This document shows positions 361 through 32,136 of a DNA stretch of 32,276 nt, piece by piece (position 1 is the first letter of the stretch; every line of letters starts with the position of its first letter). Both the position numbers and the translations under genes were made by a program. The DNA lies in IMG/VR virus record IMGVR_UViG_2703718849_000002, positions 1 to 32,276 of that record. One strand, given 5' to 3'. Source of the stretch: a virus. Lineage: Duplodnaviria > Heunggongvirae > Uroviricota > Caudoviricetes. The notes below the pieces were generated by a model. That model searched no databases. It saw only the letters and a list, made by a program, of their open reading frames with translations, and had not been told where the DNA came from.

Positions 361-675
361 TCAGAAGCTATTTGGATTGCTTGGCCATTGCGGCAATTTT
401 GATTCTACTGGGGTGTGTTTGGGTTTGAGTCCGTTTAAGTAGTCGAGGCGCTCAATGGCGCATTTATACATAGCAATCTGCTCTGATGACATGTCGTCGT
501 ATGACATGCCTTTGAACTTTTTAATTATCGATTCTGCCTCATGTATAAGGTGCTTCTTCCTCATGAGTTCAGCTGTATGCTTAGAGCTTACAGGAGATAA
601 CTTTGCCCATATGAAGCAGATGATTACAACAGCGACTACTATGCCGGGTATAAACATTTGCTGCTTTATCCTCAA
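361..675 (-). CDS. Hypothetical small membrane protein (one N-terminal transmembrane helix) co-transcribed with cI; sits where lambda has rexAB
   Basis: 104-aa ORF whose start overlaps the cI stop by 4 nt; hydrophobic stretch IPGIVVAVVIICFIWA; no family recognised. Confidence 0.6.
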   Translation of the reverse strand: MRIKQQMFIPGIVVAVVIICFIWAKLSPVSSKHTAELMRKKHLIHEAESIIKKFKGMSYDDMSSEQIAMYKCAIERLDYLNGLKPKHTPVESKLPQWPSNPNSF

Positions 676-1358
676 ACTTTTGGCAGATCGTCCTGGTCTA
701 CGTACCTGGTGTGTTTCACAATAGCTGAAACAAAATGCATTTTATCAACTTCTTCAACAGGAAGAGTGATTGGGCGGTGATCACTGTTTATGCTACTAAA
801 CTGATAATCACCGTCTCTTGTTTTGTTCATGATCTTTATCATGTTGTGACCGTCTTTGGTCCTTACAAAGACTTCATCACCTGGATGTACTGGCGTATTT
901 GGTTCAATAACAACATATTCTCCTGACTGAATCCTTGGCCACATGCTGTCACCCTTAACCTTCAGACCGTAAGCATCTTTATCGCCGCTGTAGATGCTTA
1001 ACCAACCGGATCTGAATTCAATCATATCCACTGAGCCATCAACTCCCAAAACGGCTTCACCAATTACCGGAACAAAACCCGCACGAACGTTACCCGCAAA
1101 CTCAAGATGGTCTGTAGCTCCAGCTTTACCATCTACAAGCATGTCCATCCATCCGCGTGGGAGATTAAAAGATTTTTCAATTAGTTCCATCATATCGTCA
1201 GCAATGCGTTTTTTTCCGCTTTTTCCTTCCGGATACAGCATTCTGGAAACGTATGATGGTTCCCTTTCTATTCGACGAGCCAACTCTGAGGCCTTTCCAT
1301 TACAGAATCGGTCTCTTATCTCTATCAGCCTTAGTCGTCTTTGTTCGTATTTATCCAT
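672..1358 (-). CDS. cI: cI-like prophage repressor (N-terminal HTH, C-terminal LexA/S24 self-cleaving peptidase domain)
   Basis: 228 aa; GDSM serine motif and downstream lysine typical of the LexA/cI S24 family; divergent from cro across an operator region. Confidence 0.85.
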   Translation of the reverse strand: MDKYEQRRLRLIEIRDRFCNGKASELARRIEREPSYVSRMLYPEGKSGKKRIADDMMELIEKSFNLPRGWMDMLVDGKAGATDHLEFAGNVRAGFVPVIGEAVLGVDGSVDMIEFRSGWLSIYSGDKDAYGLKVKGDSMWPRIQSGEYVVIEPNTPVHPGDEVFVRTKDGHNMIKIMNKTRDGDYQFSSINSDHRPITLPVEEVDKMHFVSAIVKHTRYVDQDDLPKV

Positions 1359-4622: not shown

Positions 4623-4655
4623 AGGCCTGCTGGTAATCGCAGGCCTTTTTATTTG
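4623..4655 (+). terminator. Rho-independent terminator after the helicase gene (tR2 analogue)
   Basis: 8-bp stem AGGCCTGC/GCAGGCCT with 8-nt loop, followed by TTTTTATTT. Confidence 0.7.
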
Positions 4656-4669
4656 GGGGAGAGTAAATC

Positions 4670-4876
4670 GTGGCTGAGTTTATGCTCGTCGCACTCAAAT
4701 GCGTTGGCGTTGGATGGATTCTTCTGACGTTTTTTATTGTTCTGCATAGCTACATTCGTCTTGTGAATGACGGTAAAGACCCATGGTATACGTTGTTTGG
4801 CGCTGCATTTGTCTGGGTGATTATCGGTGTTATGCCTGTCGCTGTAGCAAAAATGGCGTGGCGTTTTGTGAGTTGA
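4670..4876 (+). CDS. Hypothetical small membrane protein (two predicted TM helices); start is GTG 4670 or ATG 4682
   Basis: 68-aa ORF with two hydrophobic segments; SD GGAGAG upstream of the GTG. Confidence 0.5.
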   Translation: MAEFMLVALKCVGVGWILLTFFIVLHSYIRLVNDGKDPWYTLFGAAFVWVIIGVMPVAVAKMAWRFVS

Positions 4877-4893
4877 ACTGAGGGTAAGTATCG

Positions 4894-5208
4894 ATGGACG
4901 AATCAAGAAAGCAGTTTGAGGAATACGTTGCCAAAAAATTGAGATTACCATTCGAGATGATAACCGAGGCAAGAAATGGTGATAGGTACTTTGCATTTTC
5001 AAGCATGGATATTCGTCACTCCTTAAATGAGTGGTGGGCTTTATGGCAGGCATCGCGAGCAGCTATTGAAATAACCGCGCCAAAGTTTATCGACAGCAGA
5101 GAAGCATTAGCCAAAGGGTTTACTGTTGATTATTCCAATGGCTTCTGTGATGCAATGGATGCTTATGAGGAAAACATCCGCGCTGCTGGAGTCAAAGTGA
5201 AGGAGTGA
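4894..5208 (+). CDS. Hypothetical phage protein (104 aa)
   Basis: ORF with SD GAGGG, closely packed after the preceding ORF. Confidence 0.55.
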   Translation: MDESRKQFEEYVAKKLRLPFEMITEARNGDRYFAFSSMDIRHSLNEWWALWQASRAAIEITAPKFIDSREALAKGFTVDYSNGFCDAMDAYEENIRAAGVKVKE

Positions 5209-6495: not shown

Positions 6496-6664
6496 CCCAT
6501 CCCAATCCCTCCAATACCAGAAAGAAAGCGTCGAGCGGGCTTTAACGTGCGCTAACTGCGGTCAGAAGCTGCATGTGCTGGAAGTTCACGTGTGTGAGCA
6601 CTGCTGCGCAGAGCTGATGAGTGATCCGAATAGCTCAATGTACGAGGAAGAAGACGATGAATGA
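6488..6664 (+). CDS. ninF: NinF protein
   Basis: 58 aa, MLSPSQSLQYQKESVERALTCANCGQKLHVLEVHVCEHCCAELMSD matches lambda NinF as remembered; not in the supplied track. Confidence 0.8.
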   Translation: MLSPSQSLQYQKESVERALTCANCGQKLHVLEVHVCEHCCAELMSDPNSSMYEEEDDE

Positions 6665-7379
6665 GTTAATAAATGGCAATGCCATCAAAATGACAAGCAT
6701 TGAAATCGCTGAGTTGGTGGGTAAGCGTCATGACAATGTGAAACGTACCATCGAAACGCTGGCTAAAAATGGTGTTATCCGGCTTCCTCAAATTGAGGTT
6801 TCCGAAAGAATCAATAACTTAGGGTTCAATGTTCAGTACGAGCATTACGTCTTCGAAGGCGAACAAGGCAAGCGAGATAGTATTGTTGTTGTTGCCCAGT
6901 TGTCGCCAGAGTTCACCGCTCGCCTTGTTGACCGCTGGCGAGATCTTGAAGAAGCTGCGGTTAATATCCCCAAAACGCTACCGGAAGCGTTGCGCCTTGC
7001 TGCTGATCTTGCCGAGAAGAAAATGCAACTGGAAAACCAGCTCGCAATTGCCGCACCTAAAGTTGAGTTTGCCGATCGCGTTGGCGAGGCCAGCGGAATT
7101 TTGATTGGAAACTTTGCAAAGGTTGTTGGAATTGGTCCAAACAAACTGTTTGCGTGGATGCGCGATCACAAAATCCTTATTGCTTCAGGTTCCCGGCGCA
7201 ATGTGCCAATGCAGGAATATATGGATCGCGGCTATTTCACAGTGAAAGAAACAGCGGTCAACACAAATCACGGGATACAGATATCGTTCACCACAAAAAT
7301 CACCGGGCGTGGTCAACAGTGGCTGACCAGAAAGCTGCTCGATAACGGAATGCTGAAAGTAACAGGGGAGGCTGCTTAA
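6657..7379 (+). CDS. Phage antirepressor / regulatory protein (Rha-like N-terminal domain with KilA-C/Ant-type C-terminal domain)
   Basis: Start taken at MNELINGNAIK (6657); domain pattern recalled from Rha/Ant family proteins. Confidence 0.6.
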   Translation: MNELINGNAIKMTSIEIAELVGKRHDNVKRTIETLAKNGVIRLPQIEVSERINNLGFNVQYEHYVFEGEQGKRDSIVVVAQLSPEFTARLVDRWRDLEEAAVNIPKTLPEALRLAADLAEKKMQLENQLAIAAPKVEFADRVGEASGILIGNFAKVVGIGPNKLFAWMRDHKILIASGSRRNVPMQEYMDRGYFTVKETAVNTNHGIQISFTTKITGRGQQWLTRKLLDNGMLKVTGEAA

Positions 7380-10848: not shown

Positions 10849-11334
10849 ATGAATAACTTTGTTGAAATTACCTCAAGAATTGGTCGCATGTACCAAGATT
10901 TTCTTATAAGTGGAAAGGGGTCTGGCGACATCATAGAGGAAATTGACAAGCTAAGTGCAGAGCTGAGAAGGAATGGGTGTGTTAATTCTATCTTTTTTGA
11001 AACTTTGCTAAAGCAAGGCTTCATGTTTGACATGATTAATTACAACAAAGTCGCACCCAGTGCTTCGCAAAAATCATATGTGTACGTTCTGCATGCTGAA
11101 GATAGTGGGCTAACAAAAATAGGGTTTAGTCGCAGGGTTAATAAACGGATTTCAGAGATATCTCGCATGAGTGGTGGGAAGCTAAATCTAATTGCAAAGA
11201 TTCCGGCCGATAGAGAGCTTGAAACCAAATTGCACCAAAAATATTACAACTATAGGTCGCACGGGGAGTGGTTTAGTCTCAATCGTTGTCATTTGAAAGA
11301 GCTAAAAGAAATGCCTGGTAACGAACTGAAATAA
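10849..11334 (+). CDS. Moron gene: T5orf172/MUG113-type GIY-YIG-like domain protein (C-terminal half) with an N-terminal domain of unknown function
   Basis: 161 aa; C-terminal SYVYVL…KIGFSRR…RISE…H…EWF pattern typical of T5orf172 domains; visibly lower G+C than neighbours; flanked by non-coding DNA. Confidence 0.6.
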   Translation: MNNFVEITSRIGRMYQDFLISGKGSGDIIEEIDKLSAELRRNGCVNSIFFETLLKQGFMFDMINYNKVAPSASQKSYVYVLHAEDSGLTKIGFSRRVNKRISEISRMSGGKLNLIAKIPADRELETKLHQKYYNYRSHGEWFSLNRCHLKELKEMPGNELK

Positions 11335-25869: not shown

Positions 25870-28071
25870 ATGCCAGATATCACCGCAAATGTTGTGGTCA
25901 GCATGCCTTCGCAACTCTTCACTATGGCGCGTTCTTTTAAAGCCGTAGCCAATGGTAAAATTTATATCGGAAAAATTGACACTGACCCGGTAAATCCTGA
26001 AAACCAGATTCAGATTTATGTGGAAAACGAAGACGGCTCTCACGTTCCTGTATCCCAGCCAATCATCATTAACGCCGCTGGTTACCCTGTATATAACGGA
26101 CAGATTGCCAAATTCGTAACTGTGCAAGGCCATTCTATGGCTGTGTACGATGCGTATGGAGCGCGGCAATTCTATTTTCCTAATGTGCTGAAGTATGACC
26201 CTGATCAACTTGAACAGCGATTATCACTGCCTACAGCACCTGAGATTATAGGGGTATATCCATCAGGTAAATTAGCAGATGTATTAAATGATGTAACCCC
26301 GGAGCAATTCGGAGCTATCGGTGATGGGGTTGCTGACGATACGCAGGCATTAAAGGCTATGTTTAAATACATCAATGACATGCCGATTTCATTCACAGAC
26401 ACAGCAACAGAACTTAACCCCCACCTGGATGTGGCAGCAAAACGTGTTGTTTTGCGCGGCCTGTACATGCACACAGAGACAATCTTTATCCCTTCTGGGG
26501 TGCAGATTTTCCAGCCTGGATACTCTTATTTCCGCCGAAACGTGCAGCAAGGTTTTTACTTCAACCCTCCTTCTGGCGAAGGTAACATGGCTGCTGTAAG
26601 CACCTGTGTTTATTTGAAGTCTGGTAATACCTGGTATCTTAATTCTGACCCAATGTTACTTCCACATGGTGCACAGATAGATGACGGCACTATCCGCACA
26701 GGAGCCAGACACATTGATATTGAGAATCTTAGTATCATTACCAAGCCTGGAACCTTGCTTGGTTTACGCTGGCTAGGTGCAGCAGGATGCACAACTCGCA
26801 ATCTAAGTATTGGTGAGAACACACCAAGCAGCACAGCATCAACCGCCAGAATTCCTAAGGTCGGTATGCTTCACAGTATTGCTTGGGGCAGTGTTCACAC
26901 AACACCTAAGATTCTATACAAAACTCAAGGTGCTGTTTTCTACGAGCAAAACGGTGGTTCTGAGGTGAAAAACGCTTACATTGCTCGTCTTGGTCAGGAT
27001 TCAACTTATTCAGAACAGGTAATTTATAAACCGGAAGATTTTGACGAAACCGGCGATGTCGCAATTACACAGTACGGGCGCAGTTCTGTGCAGTTCAGGT
27101 ATTGTGTAACAGAAACATGCTCATTCATGTATGTTAACCAGGGTGATGCAGGAAGTAACGGCGGACTTAAGGTTGACGGTTGTCACATGGAAGCCACGGG
27201 TGGTAAGGCGAAACATTGTTTCTATATTATCAACTCGGACGCTGACATCCGTCTAAATGGTCTTTTCATTCAAGACGAAAGTATAGCAAACAGTTCAGTG
27301 GTCTACGTCAAGAGCTGCGTTAAGGGTCGTAGTGTTGTAGATATTCACGGTTACATGATGTTCAACGGTTACAGGTTCCTTGACGGCATAAACTCTGGAG
27401 CTGTAGTCAACATACGAAATCCCAACAATGGCCAGTTCCAGTATGGAAAACTTGGGAAATGGGATTTAGTTAATGAAGTTACAGGCATTTCACCTTCAAC
27501 GTTATACATCGACCCAGTTAACGGTAATGATGAAAATTGGGGTCTCAATGGAGCGCGTGGTCTAAAATCTTTGAAACATGCTGCCAAAATTTGCAGAATG
27601 CTTGAAATAAACGACGTTTACACCAACGCAGGAAGTATAAATTTAACGGAAGATACAGAGTTACCATCAGCCACAATTCGTGGCCTAGGCGGTATTGTGT
27701 GCAATGCTGATGGTAGTTTGATTGCATTGCGTAAAACGAATGTAAATCTGACGTTGAATGGAGGTGTAACAAGCCCTGCCGGGTATCACTTGATCAAAGT
27801 TGCCACCACTGAGCCAGTAAATGTAGTTTCCACTGGAGACATGACAACTACAACATCTGCTAATATCTTTCTGTTTCAAGCAAACGGTAATGTTGAATGG
27901 ACGCATAGGGCCGGTGGTGGCCTAGCCTGCTATCGATATGCCGGGACGCAGTCTGTATCGTTCTCGGCAGTGATTGGTTTGAATATCAGGTCTACAACCA
28001 GACCAGCTATAGATTCGACACCTGTATCTGGTAATGTTGTTACTAAATACTCTTCTATTTTGAACTCTTAA
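25870..28071 (+). CDS. Tailspike protein: conserved P22/Sf6-type N-terminal head-binding domain fused to a divergent beta-helix receptor-binding domain
   Basis: Start at [10 protein letters not shown] (25870); first ~110 aa resemble P22/Sf6 tailspike N-termini; the remainder carries a [15 protein letters not shown] pectate-lyase-like motif. Confidence 0.9.
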
Positions 28072-28073
28072 AA

Positions 28074-28097
28074 ATATAGACCCAGTAGGGTCTATAT
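28074..28097. terminator. Bidirectional terminator hairpin between convergent tailspike and gtrC
   Basis: Perfect 10-bp inverted repeat ATATAGACCC/GGGTCTATAT with 4-nt loop, A/T-flanked on both sides. Confidence 0.7.
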
Positions 28098-28101
28098 AAA
28101 T

Positions 28102-29514
28102 TTAACATTTATGTTCAAAGTCTATTACAAAAACATCACCTTTTCTCATTAGGGTAAGTATTTTATTCTTCTTTATAATTTCGAATGAACACATTTCAGA
28201 TATCACTTTATTGCGCATGCTTTTTTCAGGGTATGATTTGGAGCTTGCTATTCCATTAACCCTTAAGTAACTAACACCCCATGACCATGAATTAGACATG
28301 TAATTTGGAGATAATTTATATATTATAGGAAACTTTTGTGCTAGCTCATAGTATACCGGACTTCTTGGCATAGACCCATTAATTACAATTAATGGATCTT
28401 CTACTTTTAAAACATCACCCTGCACCAAGTTTATAACCTGAATCCTTCTTTGCTCATCAGCTTTTAGTGCAGATGCATATGAAGAGCAGAGCACAAAAGA
28501 AAAAAACAAAAGTATTGTGTACGACAACTTGATTAATTTATTAACTCTAATTCCGATAAAAATTAAAGGGATGTACAGCAACAGAGATATACCAACCGAT
28601 GTCCTGGGTGTAAACCATGGATCTGAGAGAATTAAATTAGAGCCAGGAGATATGATTATTGCCAAAATCGTGAAGAATACGGCAACAACTAAAGCGGAAT
28701 GGTTTTTTCTGTAAATAAAAAAGTTATGCAACACTGAAATAGACAAGATTGATATTAATGGAAGTAAATAGTAAAAATAACCACTGTTAAATAGTGGTAG
28801 TAAGATTATACTTATGAATTTCTCATAGTTATTAACTAATCCATGAAAAAAATGATCTATGCCAATTACTTCATCTCTTCCGTTGAAGTTTAGTGTCAAA
28901 TAATAAGACAGAAACTTGTATAATACAATAGACAATACAAAACTTAATAATGAGATAGATAAAAATTTTAGTGATTCAATTAATGAGTTTGATCCTTTGG
29001 TGACTGAATTTGCTGCTATAATTAATGCTGCTACTGGATATAAAAAAATACTGTTTTGATAAATAAAAAGAGAGATTAATAGAAGTGATGTGGATGAAAT
29101 TAAAAATGCAACATTATTCCCCTTGAAAATCAAAGGGATAAATACCAACAGGATTGATAATGATATTGGAAGAGAATCGAATCTGTATGATAAAATCTCA
29201 ATTGCCATTGGCGATGTTGCAATTATAGATGAAGATAATATCAATATATCATCATCTAAATTCATCGACTTAGAAAACAAATAGCCTACATATGTTAAAG
29301 TAATCACTGAAATTATTTGAGAAAATGGAAAAAAATCAGTAATAGGCGTGCCGAAAGTGATGATATTATAAATAAGGTCTGATAATGGTCTTCCGTCAAT
29401 AGCCCAACCATATCCCAAGTGAGATCTATTTATATCATCAACATAGTAATTACCACCAAGTATTATTGGCAAAATAAATGCCAGCGGTATCATGAGTAAA
29501 TATTTATTTTTCAT
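28102..29514 (-). CDS. gtrC: Serotype-specific O-antigen glucosyltransferase (GtrC / Gtr type-specific), polytopic membrane protein
   Basis: 470 aa with many hydrophobic segments; third gene of a gtrA-gtrB operon; strongly AT-rich. Confidence 0.7.
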
Positions 29515-30430
29515 TTTTAATATTCCTTATTATATATCGCGGCCTGTTTTTTGTTTCTATGTATATTCTTCCAATATACTCGCCAAGAACACCAATTCCT
29601 ATCAGCTGTACACCGCCAAGAAACAGAATTGATACCAAAATTGATGGGTAGCCACGAACAGGATTGCCAAACGCGACAGTATCAAAAATAAGCCACGTCC
29701 CATACAGAAACGACAGCCCTGCCACGAACAATCCTATATATGTCCACATGCGCAATGGAAAAGTTGAGAAACTGGTGATTCCTTCAAGCGCGAGATTCCA
29801 CAGCTTCCAGCCATTGAACTTGCTGTCACCAGCTATGCGTTCTGCGCGAGCATACTCGACGACGTCAGTCTTTCCACCAACCCAGCTAAGTATGCCTTTC
29901 ATAAACAGGTTGCGTTCAGGCATTGATTTAATGTTCTCAACCACTTCACGCGACATAAGCCGAAAGTCTCCGACGTTTTCCTCAATCTTCGGATTGCTTA
30001 TTTTATTGTGGAGCTTATAGAACCACTCAGCCGTTTTTCGCTTCAGTCTGCCATCCGTTGAGCGGTCAGATCGTTTAGCAAGCACCATATCAGCGCCTGC
30101 CTGCCATTTTTCAATCAGTTGAGGTATTACCTCAATCGGGTCTTGCAGGTCAACATCAATAGGAATAACAGCATCGCCTGTTGCATGGTCTAACCCTGCA
30201 AACAATGCTGGTTCTTTACCAAAGTTGCGCGTAAATGACAGCGGAACAACTAGCGGATCAGAAACAGCCAGAGCGTAAATTATTGACTCTGTAGAGTCTT
30301 TGCTGCCGTCATTTATGAAAACAATTTCCACCTCATATGGCTTCAACTCTTCGAATTCACGTACCGTTTTATAAAAAATTGGTATCGCTTCTTCTTCATT
30401 GAAGACAGGAACTACAAGAGATATCTTCAT
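29504..30430 (-). CDS. gtrB: Bactoprenol glucosyltransferase GtrB (GT2 family)
   Basis: 308 aa; GT2 motifs (VVPVFNEEE…, …NDGSKD…, DVDLQDP) and two C-terminal TM helices. Confidence 0.9.
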
Positions 30431-30789
30431 TTCGCATCCCTAAAGACAATGAACTTTGAATATACGAAACCGCACACCAGGCTGATGGCGGAGAAAGTGA
30501 TAAGGGTTAGCATCGGGGGAAGTGCGCATCTATCAGCAGCCCATCCAACAGTTGCACTCAGTGTTCCCATGAACCCGACATATAACATGTAGCGCATCGT
30601 TGTGGTCGATGCTTTGAATGTGAATCTTGCATTCGCGAAGAAGCTAAAACTCACAGCCACAACGAAACCTGCGAAGTTTGCCAGAGCCTGATTGGTATGC
30701 GCGGCATAGATACATACACCAAAAACCACCCAGTGTATAAGTGTGTTCAGCACACCAATCGAGGTGTACTTTGCAAATAGCTTTAACAT
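30427..30789 (-). CDS. gtrA: GtrA flippase for undecaprenyl-phosphate glucose
   Basis: 120-aa four-TM protein, highly similar to GtrA of serotype-converting phages as remembered. Confidence 0.9.
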
Positions 30790-30942
30790 TTATTTAATCA
30801 ATGAGTTCTGAAAGGCATGAAGTCTATCATCCAAGTCTCAATCGATCGATGACTTGCTATGGTTGATGAGACAAAACTGAGACAAACAAAGCTTTGCACT
30901 GGATTACAAGGCTTTGTGATATTCGATAGTTGTTAAGGCGGA

Positions 30943-32136
30943 TCACTCCACCTTTTCATCAATCCAATCCGCCCACCACTGCATCATTTCTCTGCGCTTA
31001 TCGAGATACTGAGCATGGTTGTAAATACCGCGCACAGATCCGCCGTTGGCATGTGCAAGTTGCACTTCAATGGCGTCGGCAGGCCATTCGTGCTCGTTCA
31101 TAATCGTGCTGAATTCATGCCTGAATCCGTGACCGCTTTCCAGACCTTCATAGCCGATTTGTTTGATCACAAGCAGTACCGCGTTCTCGCAGATTGGCTT
31201 CTTCTTATCGTTGCGCCCGGCAAAAACAAACTCTGAGACTGGTTTGGTTATTGAGCTTAGCGTAGTGAGAAGTTCAACCACCTGGTCTGACATAGGAACC
31301 ACATGAATTTTGCGGCCCTTCATCACACTGGCGTCGATAGTGATAATCCTGTTTTCAAAATCGACGTTCTTCCATTGCATGGAACGAAGCTCTTTCGTTC
31401 TTAGGGCTGTGTAGCGTAAAACTTTGGTCGCAATGAGCGATACGATACTTCCTGAAAATGTTGCAAGTGCTTTGTTGAATGCCGGGATCTGGTCTGCTGG
31501 AAGAAACGGGAAGTTCTTCTTGCGGTATCCCTTCATGGCGTCAGCAAGGTCAGGTGCCGGGTTATATTTAGCCCTACCAGTGACAATAGCGTAACGGAAA
31601 ACCTCGCCGCATCTTCTGCGGGCTTTGTTGGCTCGCTCCATTGCACCGCGATCTTCAAATCTGCGGATTACTTCCAGCAGTTGCATCGGCTCAATATCCT
31701 GAATTTCAAGGCCGCCAATGATAGGTAAAATGTCGTCGTCAAACATTTTTGCAAGTTCATTTGCATAGCCTACTGACCAGACTTGCTTCTTGTGCTCGTA
31801 CCATTCCTTGTAAATGGCGCTAAAGGAGTTGTTGTTAGACGAAGCCTTTTTCGCTTTTACCGGATCGATGCCAACCGAGATGTCTTTCCTCGCGGTCCAT
31901 ACTTTATCCCTTGCCTCCTGCAAAGTCATAAGCGGATATTTTCCGACGGTCAGGATTTTCTCCTTACCGTCAATCTTGTAGCGAAGCTGCCATACCTTTT
32001 TCCCTGACACAGGGACATAAAGGTACAGGCCATTACCATCGAGCAGGCGGTATGGTTTTTCTTTCGGCTTTGCTGCTTCAATCTGCTTAACGGTGAGCAT
32101 GGGTAAAAATCCGGTGGGTAAAATTATTTTATCCAC
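30943..32136 (-). CDS. int: Tyrosine integrase (P4-like family with N-terminal arm-binding DUF4102-type domain)
   Basis: 397 aa; N-terminal …YRLLDGNGLYLYV…, catalytic region with …HGFRHEF… and C-terminal tyrosine motif; adjacent to a tRNA 3' end. Confidence 0.9.
   Translation of the reverse strand: MDKIILPTGFLPMLTVKQIEAAKPKEKPYRLLDGNGLYLYVPVSGKKVWQLRYKIDGKEKILTVGKYPLMTLQEARDKVWTARKDISVGIDPVKAKKASSNNNSFSAIYKEWYEHKKQVWSVGYANELAKMFDDDILPIIGGLEIQDIEPMQLLEVIRRFEDRGAMERANKARRRCGEVFRYAIVTGRAKYNPAPDLADAMKGYRKKNFPFLPADQIPAFNKALATFSGSIVSLIATKVLRYTALRTKELRSMQWKNVDFENRIITIDASVMKGRKIHVVPMSDQVVELLTTLSSITKPVSEFVFAGRNDKKKPICENAVLLVIKQIGYEGLESGHGFRHEFSTIMNEHEWPADAIEVQLAHANGGSVRGIYNHAQYLDKRREMMQWWADWIDEKVE

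Follow-up and report, generated by a model that had tools for sequence, protein, structure and literature searches.

In the standard Gtr pathway of O-antigen glucosylation, GtrB acts first, GtrA second, and a type-specific enzyme last (PMC7685785, PMC3688519). The gtrABC operon of phage P22 encodes a type-specific enzyme of GtrC family I, which adds glucose to the O-antigen galactose and gives rise to the O:1 factor. Upstream of gtrA, the phase-varying gtr operons of Salmonella and P22 contain four GATC sites within two overlapping OxyR motifs, and the -35 element of the P22 gtr promoter overlaps GATC-4 (PMC3688519). Gtr cassettes alter the immunodominant O-antigen and so affect serotyping, vaccine and antibody recognition, and phage host range, and the number of type-specific Gtr enzymes linked to a structure is much smaller in E. 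coli than in Shigella or Salmonella. Here we analyze a gtrABC operon in the virus record IMGVR_UViG_2703718849_000002 (hereafter the window), which is a whole E. coli contig of 32,276 bp carrying the cI-to-int portion of an Sf6/HK620-like Lederbergvirus prophage. We consider it highly probable that the operon is a functional serotype-conversion cassette that is expressed in the lysogen, on a prophage at the argW side of the chromosome, and that it occupies the slot between int and the tailspike gene. What is new is a rare and divergent gtrC allele; the locus is otherwise a textbook one and offers no new mechanism, and it stands out only for how rare and divergent its GtrC is, for the lack of a phase-variation module, and for an unusual chimeric tailspike partner.

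The three genes of the cassette are co-oriented on the minus strand in overlapping frames. gtrA (30427-30789) encodes a 120-aa small polytopic membrane protein, the putative flippase for undecaprenyl phosphate (Und-P)-glucose; gtrB (29504-30430) encodes a 308-aa GT2 bactoprenol (Und-P) glucosyltransferase; and the gene in the gtrC position (28102-29514) encodes a 470-aa type-specific glucosyltransferase with a GT-C fold, belonging to the P22-GtrC branch. The frames of gtrA and gtrB share 4 nt (ATGA) and those of gtrB and gtrC share 11 nt; gtrC, which has an AAGGA Shine-Dalgarno sequence 9 nt ahead of its ATG, is translationally coupled. The cassette is flanked by the tyrosine integrase gene int (30943-32136, minus strand), from whose stop codon gtrA is separated by a 153-bp intergenic spacer (30790-30942), and by a tailspike gene with a P22 head-binding domain (25870-28071, plus strand).

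GtrA matched GtrA_DPMS_TM (PF04138) at 52.4 bits, against a Pfam gathering cutoff of 26.1, and is 96.7% identical to K-12 YfdG, 90-91% identical to GtrA of SfI, SfII, SfIV, and SfV, and 80% identical to P22 GtrA. GtrB matched Glycos_transf_2 (PF00535) over residues 4-167 (108.8 bits, gathering cutoff 23.3) and is 88-92% identical to the characterized GtrB proteins of SfI, SfII, SfIV, SfV, P22, and K-12 (YfdH). It aligns end to end (residues 2-303) with the solved structure of Synechocystis GtrB (5EKP, E 9e-90), and its hydropathy profile has two C-terminal transmembrane (TM) peaks, at 231-249 and 264-286. The passing of both gathering cutoffs and the near-identity to characterized proteins bear out the flippase and bactoprenol glucosyltransferase identities proposed in an earlier note on this DNA, which was made from the letters alone and which had also correctly placed the operon between the tailspike gene and int. 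This gtrAB scaffold occurs in 751 of the 5,426 complete E. coli genomes. The DNA homology of gtrB to other gtrB genes fades from 5' to 3' and is gone in the final 40-60 nt, where the G+C content falls too; similarity to other gtr operons is lost at the same place as the composition changes.

The G+C content of gtrC is 0.304, compared with 0.43-0.46 for gtrAB and 0.483 for the remaining contig. Among all 1413-bp windows of the contig (mean 0.470, standard deviation 0.040), gtrC is the minimum, about 4 standard deviations below the mean. This measurement agrees with the estimate by eye in the earlier note (roughly 30% G+C, far more AT-rich than the rest of the prophage), and its description of low G+C as the usual signature of a type-specific gene also holds, as the characterized type-specific gtr genes that we measured are all AT-rich (0.28-0.38).

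The sole Pfam match of GtrC (KXR18027.1 / WP_061357755.1) is to Glucos_trans_II (PF14264), at 81.2 bits against a gathering cutoff of 30 (residues 20-319). When GtrC was aligned with P22 GtrC by hhalign, the probability was 100% (E 4e-68, 474 aligned columns), with ~25% of residues identical, and the two proteins have in common the motifs VDDxGRS, GRPLSD, ENLSYRxDSL, YQ, and PRV. By sequence, GtrC is unambiguously a full-length homolog of P22 GtrC, within the P22-GtrC branch (the Salmonella GtrC family I type). The earlier note had suggested a blastp comparison with known type-specific Gtr enzymes; in this comparison P22 GtrC was again ~25% identical, GtrII gave an E value of 0.01, and there was no significant match to GtrI, GtrIV, GtrV, K-12 YfdI, or HF4s GtrC. 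GtrII is a distant relative (hhalign E 1.6e-12) that lacks acidic residues at the positions aligned with the DD motif, and neither GtrV nor YfdI gave an hhalign match (E 0.13 for YfdI). Direct kinship to the Shigella enzymes GtrI, GtrIV, and GtrV was therefore rejected, as no similarity was detectable. Because P22 GtrC, the closest characterized enzyme, is only ~25% identical, the P22 specificity (glucose on the O-antigen galactose, O:1) should not be transferred to the window enzyme, in keeping with the earlier note, which had cautioned against calling the specific modification from sequence.

A search of 50,697 phage records and of 5,426 complete E. coli genomes yielded no near-identical gtrC DNA, and there is therefore no annotated twin from which a function could be borrowed. 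The best protein match in the phage database was from Cronobacter phage ENT47670 (27%), followed by P22 GtrC. A collection of 5.8 billion proteins contained one cluster at 99% identity, made up of 15 E. coli sequences, and the next relatives were from Hafnia paralvei (48%), Enterobacter roggenkampii (34%), and Cedecea neteri (29%). The wider family comprises 1,030 clusters (50% identity level, E <= 1e-3), mostly of full-length proteins of 470-500 aa. The relatives in Hafnia, Enterobacter, and Cedecea are encoded in gtr(A)-gtrB-gtrC operons that are convergent with tail-fibre or tailspike genes, in phages of differing morphotypes.

The usual catalytic signature of GT-C enzymes is a pair of acidic residues in the first external loop. 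In an alignment of 100 sequences, D26, D27, and D113 of GtrC were invariant (D26-D27 in 100/100 homologs), and R30, R42, Y152, Q153, R304, C442, and C470 were nearly invariant; the D26-D27 pair directly follows TM1 (residues 8-25). The AlphaFold2 model of GtrC is confident (predicted local distance difference test score, pLDDT, 96) and has the GT-C glycosyltransferase fold, and together with the hydropathy profile it indicates ~11 TM helices and a C-terminal alpha/beta domain of ~100 aa. The third gene thus encodes a polytopic protein in the gtrC position, as the earlier note had described. A Foldseek search with the model gave no match below an E value of 0.02, the high-probability matches being STT3, ALG3, and Pmt4, and a search of PDB sequences with GtrC found nothing; no close solved structure for the GtrC family was found in either search. 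Combining the model helices, the hydropathy profile, and the positive-inside rule, we infer a topology of 11 TM helices with the N terminus in the cytoplasm and the C terminus outside. This arrangement would place all of the conserved residues on the periplasmic side and the short loops containing K and R on the cytoplasmic side, and the alpha/beta domain at the C terminus, which contains a conserved Cys pair, would be periplasmic. D26 and D27, in the first external loop, and D113 are likely to be the catalytic and donor-binding residues of the modeled enzyme.

In the mechanism that we propose, GtrB would transfer glucose from uridine diphosphate (UDP)-glucose to undecaprenyl phosphate at the cytoplasmic face of the membrane, GtrA would move Und-P-glucose to the periplasmic face, and the 470-aa GT-C enzyme would use it in the periplasm to attach glucose as a side-branch to one particular sugar of the O-antigen repeat. 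Glucose is the probable transferred sugar because GtrB is so similar (88-92% identity) to characterized enzymes, and the O-antigen is the probable acceptor because of the homology to P22 GtrC and the co-inheritance of the gene with an O-antigen-type tailspike. The modified O-antigen would serve less well as a receptor, both for the O-antigen-specific tailspike of the phage itself and for similar phages, and a serological epitope would be altered. A block to superinfection is suggested by the precedent of P22 and the Sf phages. PADLOC models of anti-phage defence matched none of GtrA, GtrB, and GtrC.

Expression of the cassette in the lysogen is expected because it appears to have its own weak promoter and its own terminator and would be transcribed against the late operon. 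The putative gtr promoter (30821-30849, minus strand) consists of a -35 element TCGATC (30849-30844), a 17-nt spacer, and a -10 element TAGACT (30826-30821). Its only GATC lies in the -35 hexamer, at -58 from the gtrA ATG, and the P22 gtr region has the same hexamer at the same position, with the same 17-nt spacing. A generic sigma-70 scan upstream of gtrA called no promoter, the proposed site matching the consensus poorly and falling under the threshold, and the promoter is assigned provisionally, by its positional homology to P22 alone. When we looked for the four-GATC/OxyR signature of phase variation, P22 served as a positive control and showed GATC sites at -135, -122, -71, and -58. Upstream of gtrA in the window we found only the site at -58 and one at -155, inside the int stop region; the ~77-bp block that contains the other three P22 sites is absent from the window, as it is from SfI, SfII, and K-12. 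Dam/OxyR phase variation was rejected on these grounds, and because the Dam/OxyR module is absent, we predict that expression of the operon is probably constitutive rather than phase variable.

On the tailspike side, a hairpin with a perfect 10-bp stem, ATATAGACCC-AGTA-GGGTCTATAT (28074-28097, no strand assigned), lies between the convergent stop codons of the tailspike gene and gtrC. Its folding energies are -15.9 and -14.5 kcal/mol (z -3.9 and -4.5), 0/200 shuffles were as stable, and a run of T follows it on the gtrC strand. The stem is preserved by a compensatory A-T to C-G change in two of the three further isolates described below (L001 and L002). From these sequence properties, the hairpin is likely to be a bidirectional terminator that bounds the cassette. 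At the other end, a weak hairpin follows the int stop codon (30886-30917, minus strand); its stem, ACAAAGC/GCUUUGU, appears in both the minimum free energy and the centroid structures, with a z of only -1.6, and the homologous stretch of SfII is annotated as a putative rho-independent terminator. This hairpin may be an int terminator or an insulator upstream of the gtr promoter, an assignment that we make with low confidence.

Three further E. coli assemblies (L001-L003) have the gene order mlaA-yfdC-int-gtrA-gtrB-gtrC-tailspike, and gtrA, gtrB, and gtrC are open in all four isolates compared (the gtrA frame is intact in 4/4). Across pairs of L001-L003, gtrC has 18 synonymous and 0 non-synonymous differences. 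The window allele differs from the others at 7-11 positions, including four private non-synonymous changes (S140, L182, H224, and S235), all of which fall in variable columns of the alignment. The earlier note had named a disrupted reading frame in other isolates as a result that would count against a functional cassette. The three other isolates, with their intact frames and solely synonymous differences from one another, give no sign of this, whereas in a further isolate gtrC is split over two contigs, encoding residues 1-183 (EIX8809432.1) and 220-470 (EIX8807666.1), with 36 codons missing. These two proteins have adjacent accession numbers and probably come from one E. coli assembly, and the split could reflect either an insertion sequence or a mere assembly break. 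In L002, gtrB (L002:9084-10011) has a ~320-nt internal block (alignment columns ~628-950) with 64 substitutions, of which 49 are synonymous, between flanks identical to the window; this pattern points to recombination inside gtrB.

The gtrC allele is always found beside the same type of tailspike. The start codon of the tailspike gene that is supported by homologs is the ATG at 25870, which gives a protein of 733 aa as in other isolates, rather than the upstream ATG at 25822 in the list of open reading frames (ORFs). The protein is a cross-family chimera: residues 1-116 are a P22/Sf6 head-binding domain, and residues ~125-729 share 41% identity with TSP1 of the Kuttervirus myophage CBA120 (PDB 4OJ5, E 9e-139) and with its homologs from Salmonella phages. 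No receptor-binding body closer than the CBA120 TSP1 type was found in the phage records searched. We considered naming the receptor O-antigen from the tailspike and rejected this, as a body only ~41% identical to TSP1 of CBA120 and its Kuttervirus homologs is too distant.

Comparison of the window tailspike gene (25870-28071) with its counterparts in two other isolates (L002:11444-13645 and L003:11444-13645) reveals a mosaic, in which 150-nt blocks range from 64-67% to 99-100% identical; the codon differences are mostly synonymous (172-242 synonymous versus 62-105 non-synonymous per pair). The adjoining gtrC is >99% identical, and so are the last 150 nt of the tailspike gene (99-100%). This pattern of identity suggests that gtrC, the terminator, and the 3' end of the tailspike gene form a block that was shared recently among otherwise diverged tailspike genes. 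In L001 (GCA_032285765.1; L001:11444-13760), the tailspike gene has a frameshift downstream of the head-binding domain, which leaves a 570-aa C-terminal ORF as the only one called, and the adjacent gtrABC is intact. This could mean that the conversion cassette has been kept while the prophage decays, or the frameshift could be a sequencing error.

We weighed three other explanations for the locus. The cassette could be intact but silent in this host, as hitch-hiking phage cargo, if the acceptor is absent (for example, in a rough strain) or if expression is negligible. K-12 is rough and makes no O-antigen, and gtr remnants (yfdGHI) persist in it; in the window prophage, the promoter fits the consensus poorly, and of the 7-11 differences of the window allele, four are private non-synonymous changes. 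Some Salmonella GtrC families, moreover, gave no detectable change in lipopolysaccharide (LPS) (PMC3688519). But the invariant residues of GtrC are all kept, the private changes are confined to variable columns, and the other three isolates differ synonymously only. The allele also always accompanies the same O-antigen-type tailspike, as would be expected if the receptor were the polysaccharide that the Gtr proteins modify, and gtrABC is intact even where the tailspike gene is frameshifted. We consider a silent cassette improbable.

The remaining alternatives concern what the third protein does. GtrC might decorate another glycan (enterobacterial common antigen, the LPS core, or capsule) or transfer a sugar other than glucose; systems composed of a GT2 enzyme, a flippase, and a GT-C enzyme modify many glycoconjugates and can carry other sugars (PMC11127046, PMC11194591), and GtrC is only 25% identical to any characterized enzyme. 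That GtrB is 88-92% identical to Shigella and Salmonella phage enzymes shown to make Und-P-glucose speaks against a different sugar, and the membership of GtrC in the family of P22 GtrC, an O-antigen glucosyltransferase, together with the convergence and co-inheritance of its gene with an O-antigen-type tailspike, speaks against a different glycan, so that we give this explanation very little weight. An O-antigen acyltransferase (as in Salmonella GtrC family II/BTP1, or Oac of Sf6) or a translocase has a probability close to nil. Sf6, the closest phage, carries the acetylase gene oac near int, presumably in exactly this genomic slot, and many records label homologs of GtrC as "GtrC-like O-antigen conversion translocase", but the protein has a GT-C fold with an invariant acidic pair in the first loop. 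The acyltransferase reading was rejected when Pfam (E <= 0.01) gave no match to Acyl_transf_3 or SGNH, and only Glucos_trans_II was found.

If the cassette is, as we favor, a functional serotype-conversion operon, its rare GtrC might add a glucose side-branch at a position or linkage that has not yet been tied to a gene in E. coli, although we hold this only tentatively and think it rather unlikely. Were it true, the allele may be the missing determinant of a side-branch, or it may create an unrecognized O-subfactor. The near-invariant gtrC (>99%) beside a mosaic tailspike gene would then signify that the cassette has spread recently among diverged phages with the same target O-antigen. An intact allele paired with its own tailspike would lend itself to assigning a gene to one further side-branch and to tests of self-exclusion.

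Overall, the closest phage to the window is Sf6, with 97% identity over 74% of the first 25 kb. The adjacency of yfdC and int in L001-L003 and the corresponding neighbourhood in K-12 (yfdC, tRNA-Arg, intS, yfdG, yfdH, yfdI) suggest that the prophage is integrated at the argW side of the chromosome. There is no tRNA within the window because the contig stops 140 bp past int, short of argW. The contig starts at a cI-like repressor gene (672-1358, minus strand); the early-left operon with xis, both attachment (att) sites, and argW fall outside the window, which therefore does not show how complete the prophage is. Several other genes of the window deserve mention. An ORF of 134 aa that lies in reverse orientation between ninB and a DnaB-like replication gene (4649-5053, minus strand) had no match in Pfam, PHROG, or PADLOC and is a possible moron. 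A 161-aa protein encoded upstream of the terminase region (10849-11334, plus strand) has a T5orf172/MUG113 (GIY-YIG-like) domain and a marginal PADLOC match to the candidate system PDC-S57 (E 4e-4). In the interval that separates the tailspike gene from the last injection-protein gene, the window has only an Arc/Mnt-type repressor, a 97-aa ORF (25488-25781, minus strand); in L003 the same interval contains ant, arc, mnt, and extra genes, including one for a SocA_Panacea domain protein, and the Ant-like anti-repressor of the window sits instead in the nin region (6621-7379).

Among the described relatives of the cassette, Cronobacter phage ENT47670 has a gtrA-gtrB-gtrC operon by int and a GtrC-like protein that is 27% identical over its full length (blastp E 4e-48), but this protein is uncharacterized and comes from another host genus, and its gene is far less AT-rich (0.41). 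The CPS-53/KpLE1 remnant of K-12, at argW, resembles the window-type prophage in its mlaA-yfdC-tRNA-Arg-int neighbourhood, in its order of int, gtrA, gtrB, and a third gene, and in its GtrA (96.7% identical) and GtrB (89.5%). Its third gene, yfdI, is unrelated to the gtrC of the window (hhalign E 0.13), and it is a decayed remnant, whereas the window holds a cI-to-int prophage portion with structural genes.

The cassettes of SfI, SfII, SfIV, and SfV share with the window a conserved gtrAB (~85% nucleotide and 90-92% protein identity) followed by an AT-rich, unrelated type-specific third gene; the regulatory region is conserved to about -130, and the four-GATC signature is likewise absent. They differ in that GtrI, GtrIV, and GtrV have no detectable similarity to GtrC of the window and GtrII has only a distant one, in that attP of SfI is annotated between int and gtrA, and in that the neighbouring gene encodes a tail fibre rather than a tailspike.

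P22 gtrABC differs from the window in its GtrC, which at ~25% identity need not have the same acceptor and linkage, and in its phase variation, with four GATC sites in OxyR motifs where the window has only the -58 site and lacks the ~77-bp module. In P22, attP presumably lies between gtrA and int, whereas in the window-type integrated prophage these two genes are adjacent. The likeness is nevertheless extensive: both cassettes belong to P22-like podoviruses and lie between int and the tailspike gene, with the same three-gene order and overlapping frames, their GtrA and GtrB proteins are 80% and 88% identical, gtrC is AT-rich in both (0.32 in P22 and 0.30 in the window), and both have the -35 hexamer TCGATC at -58.

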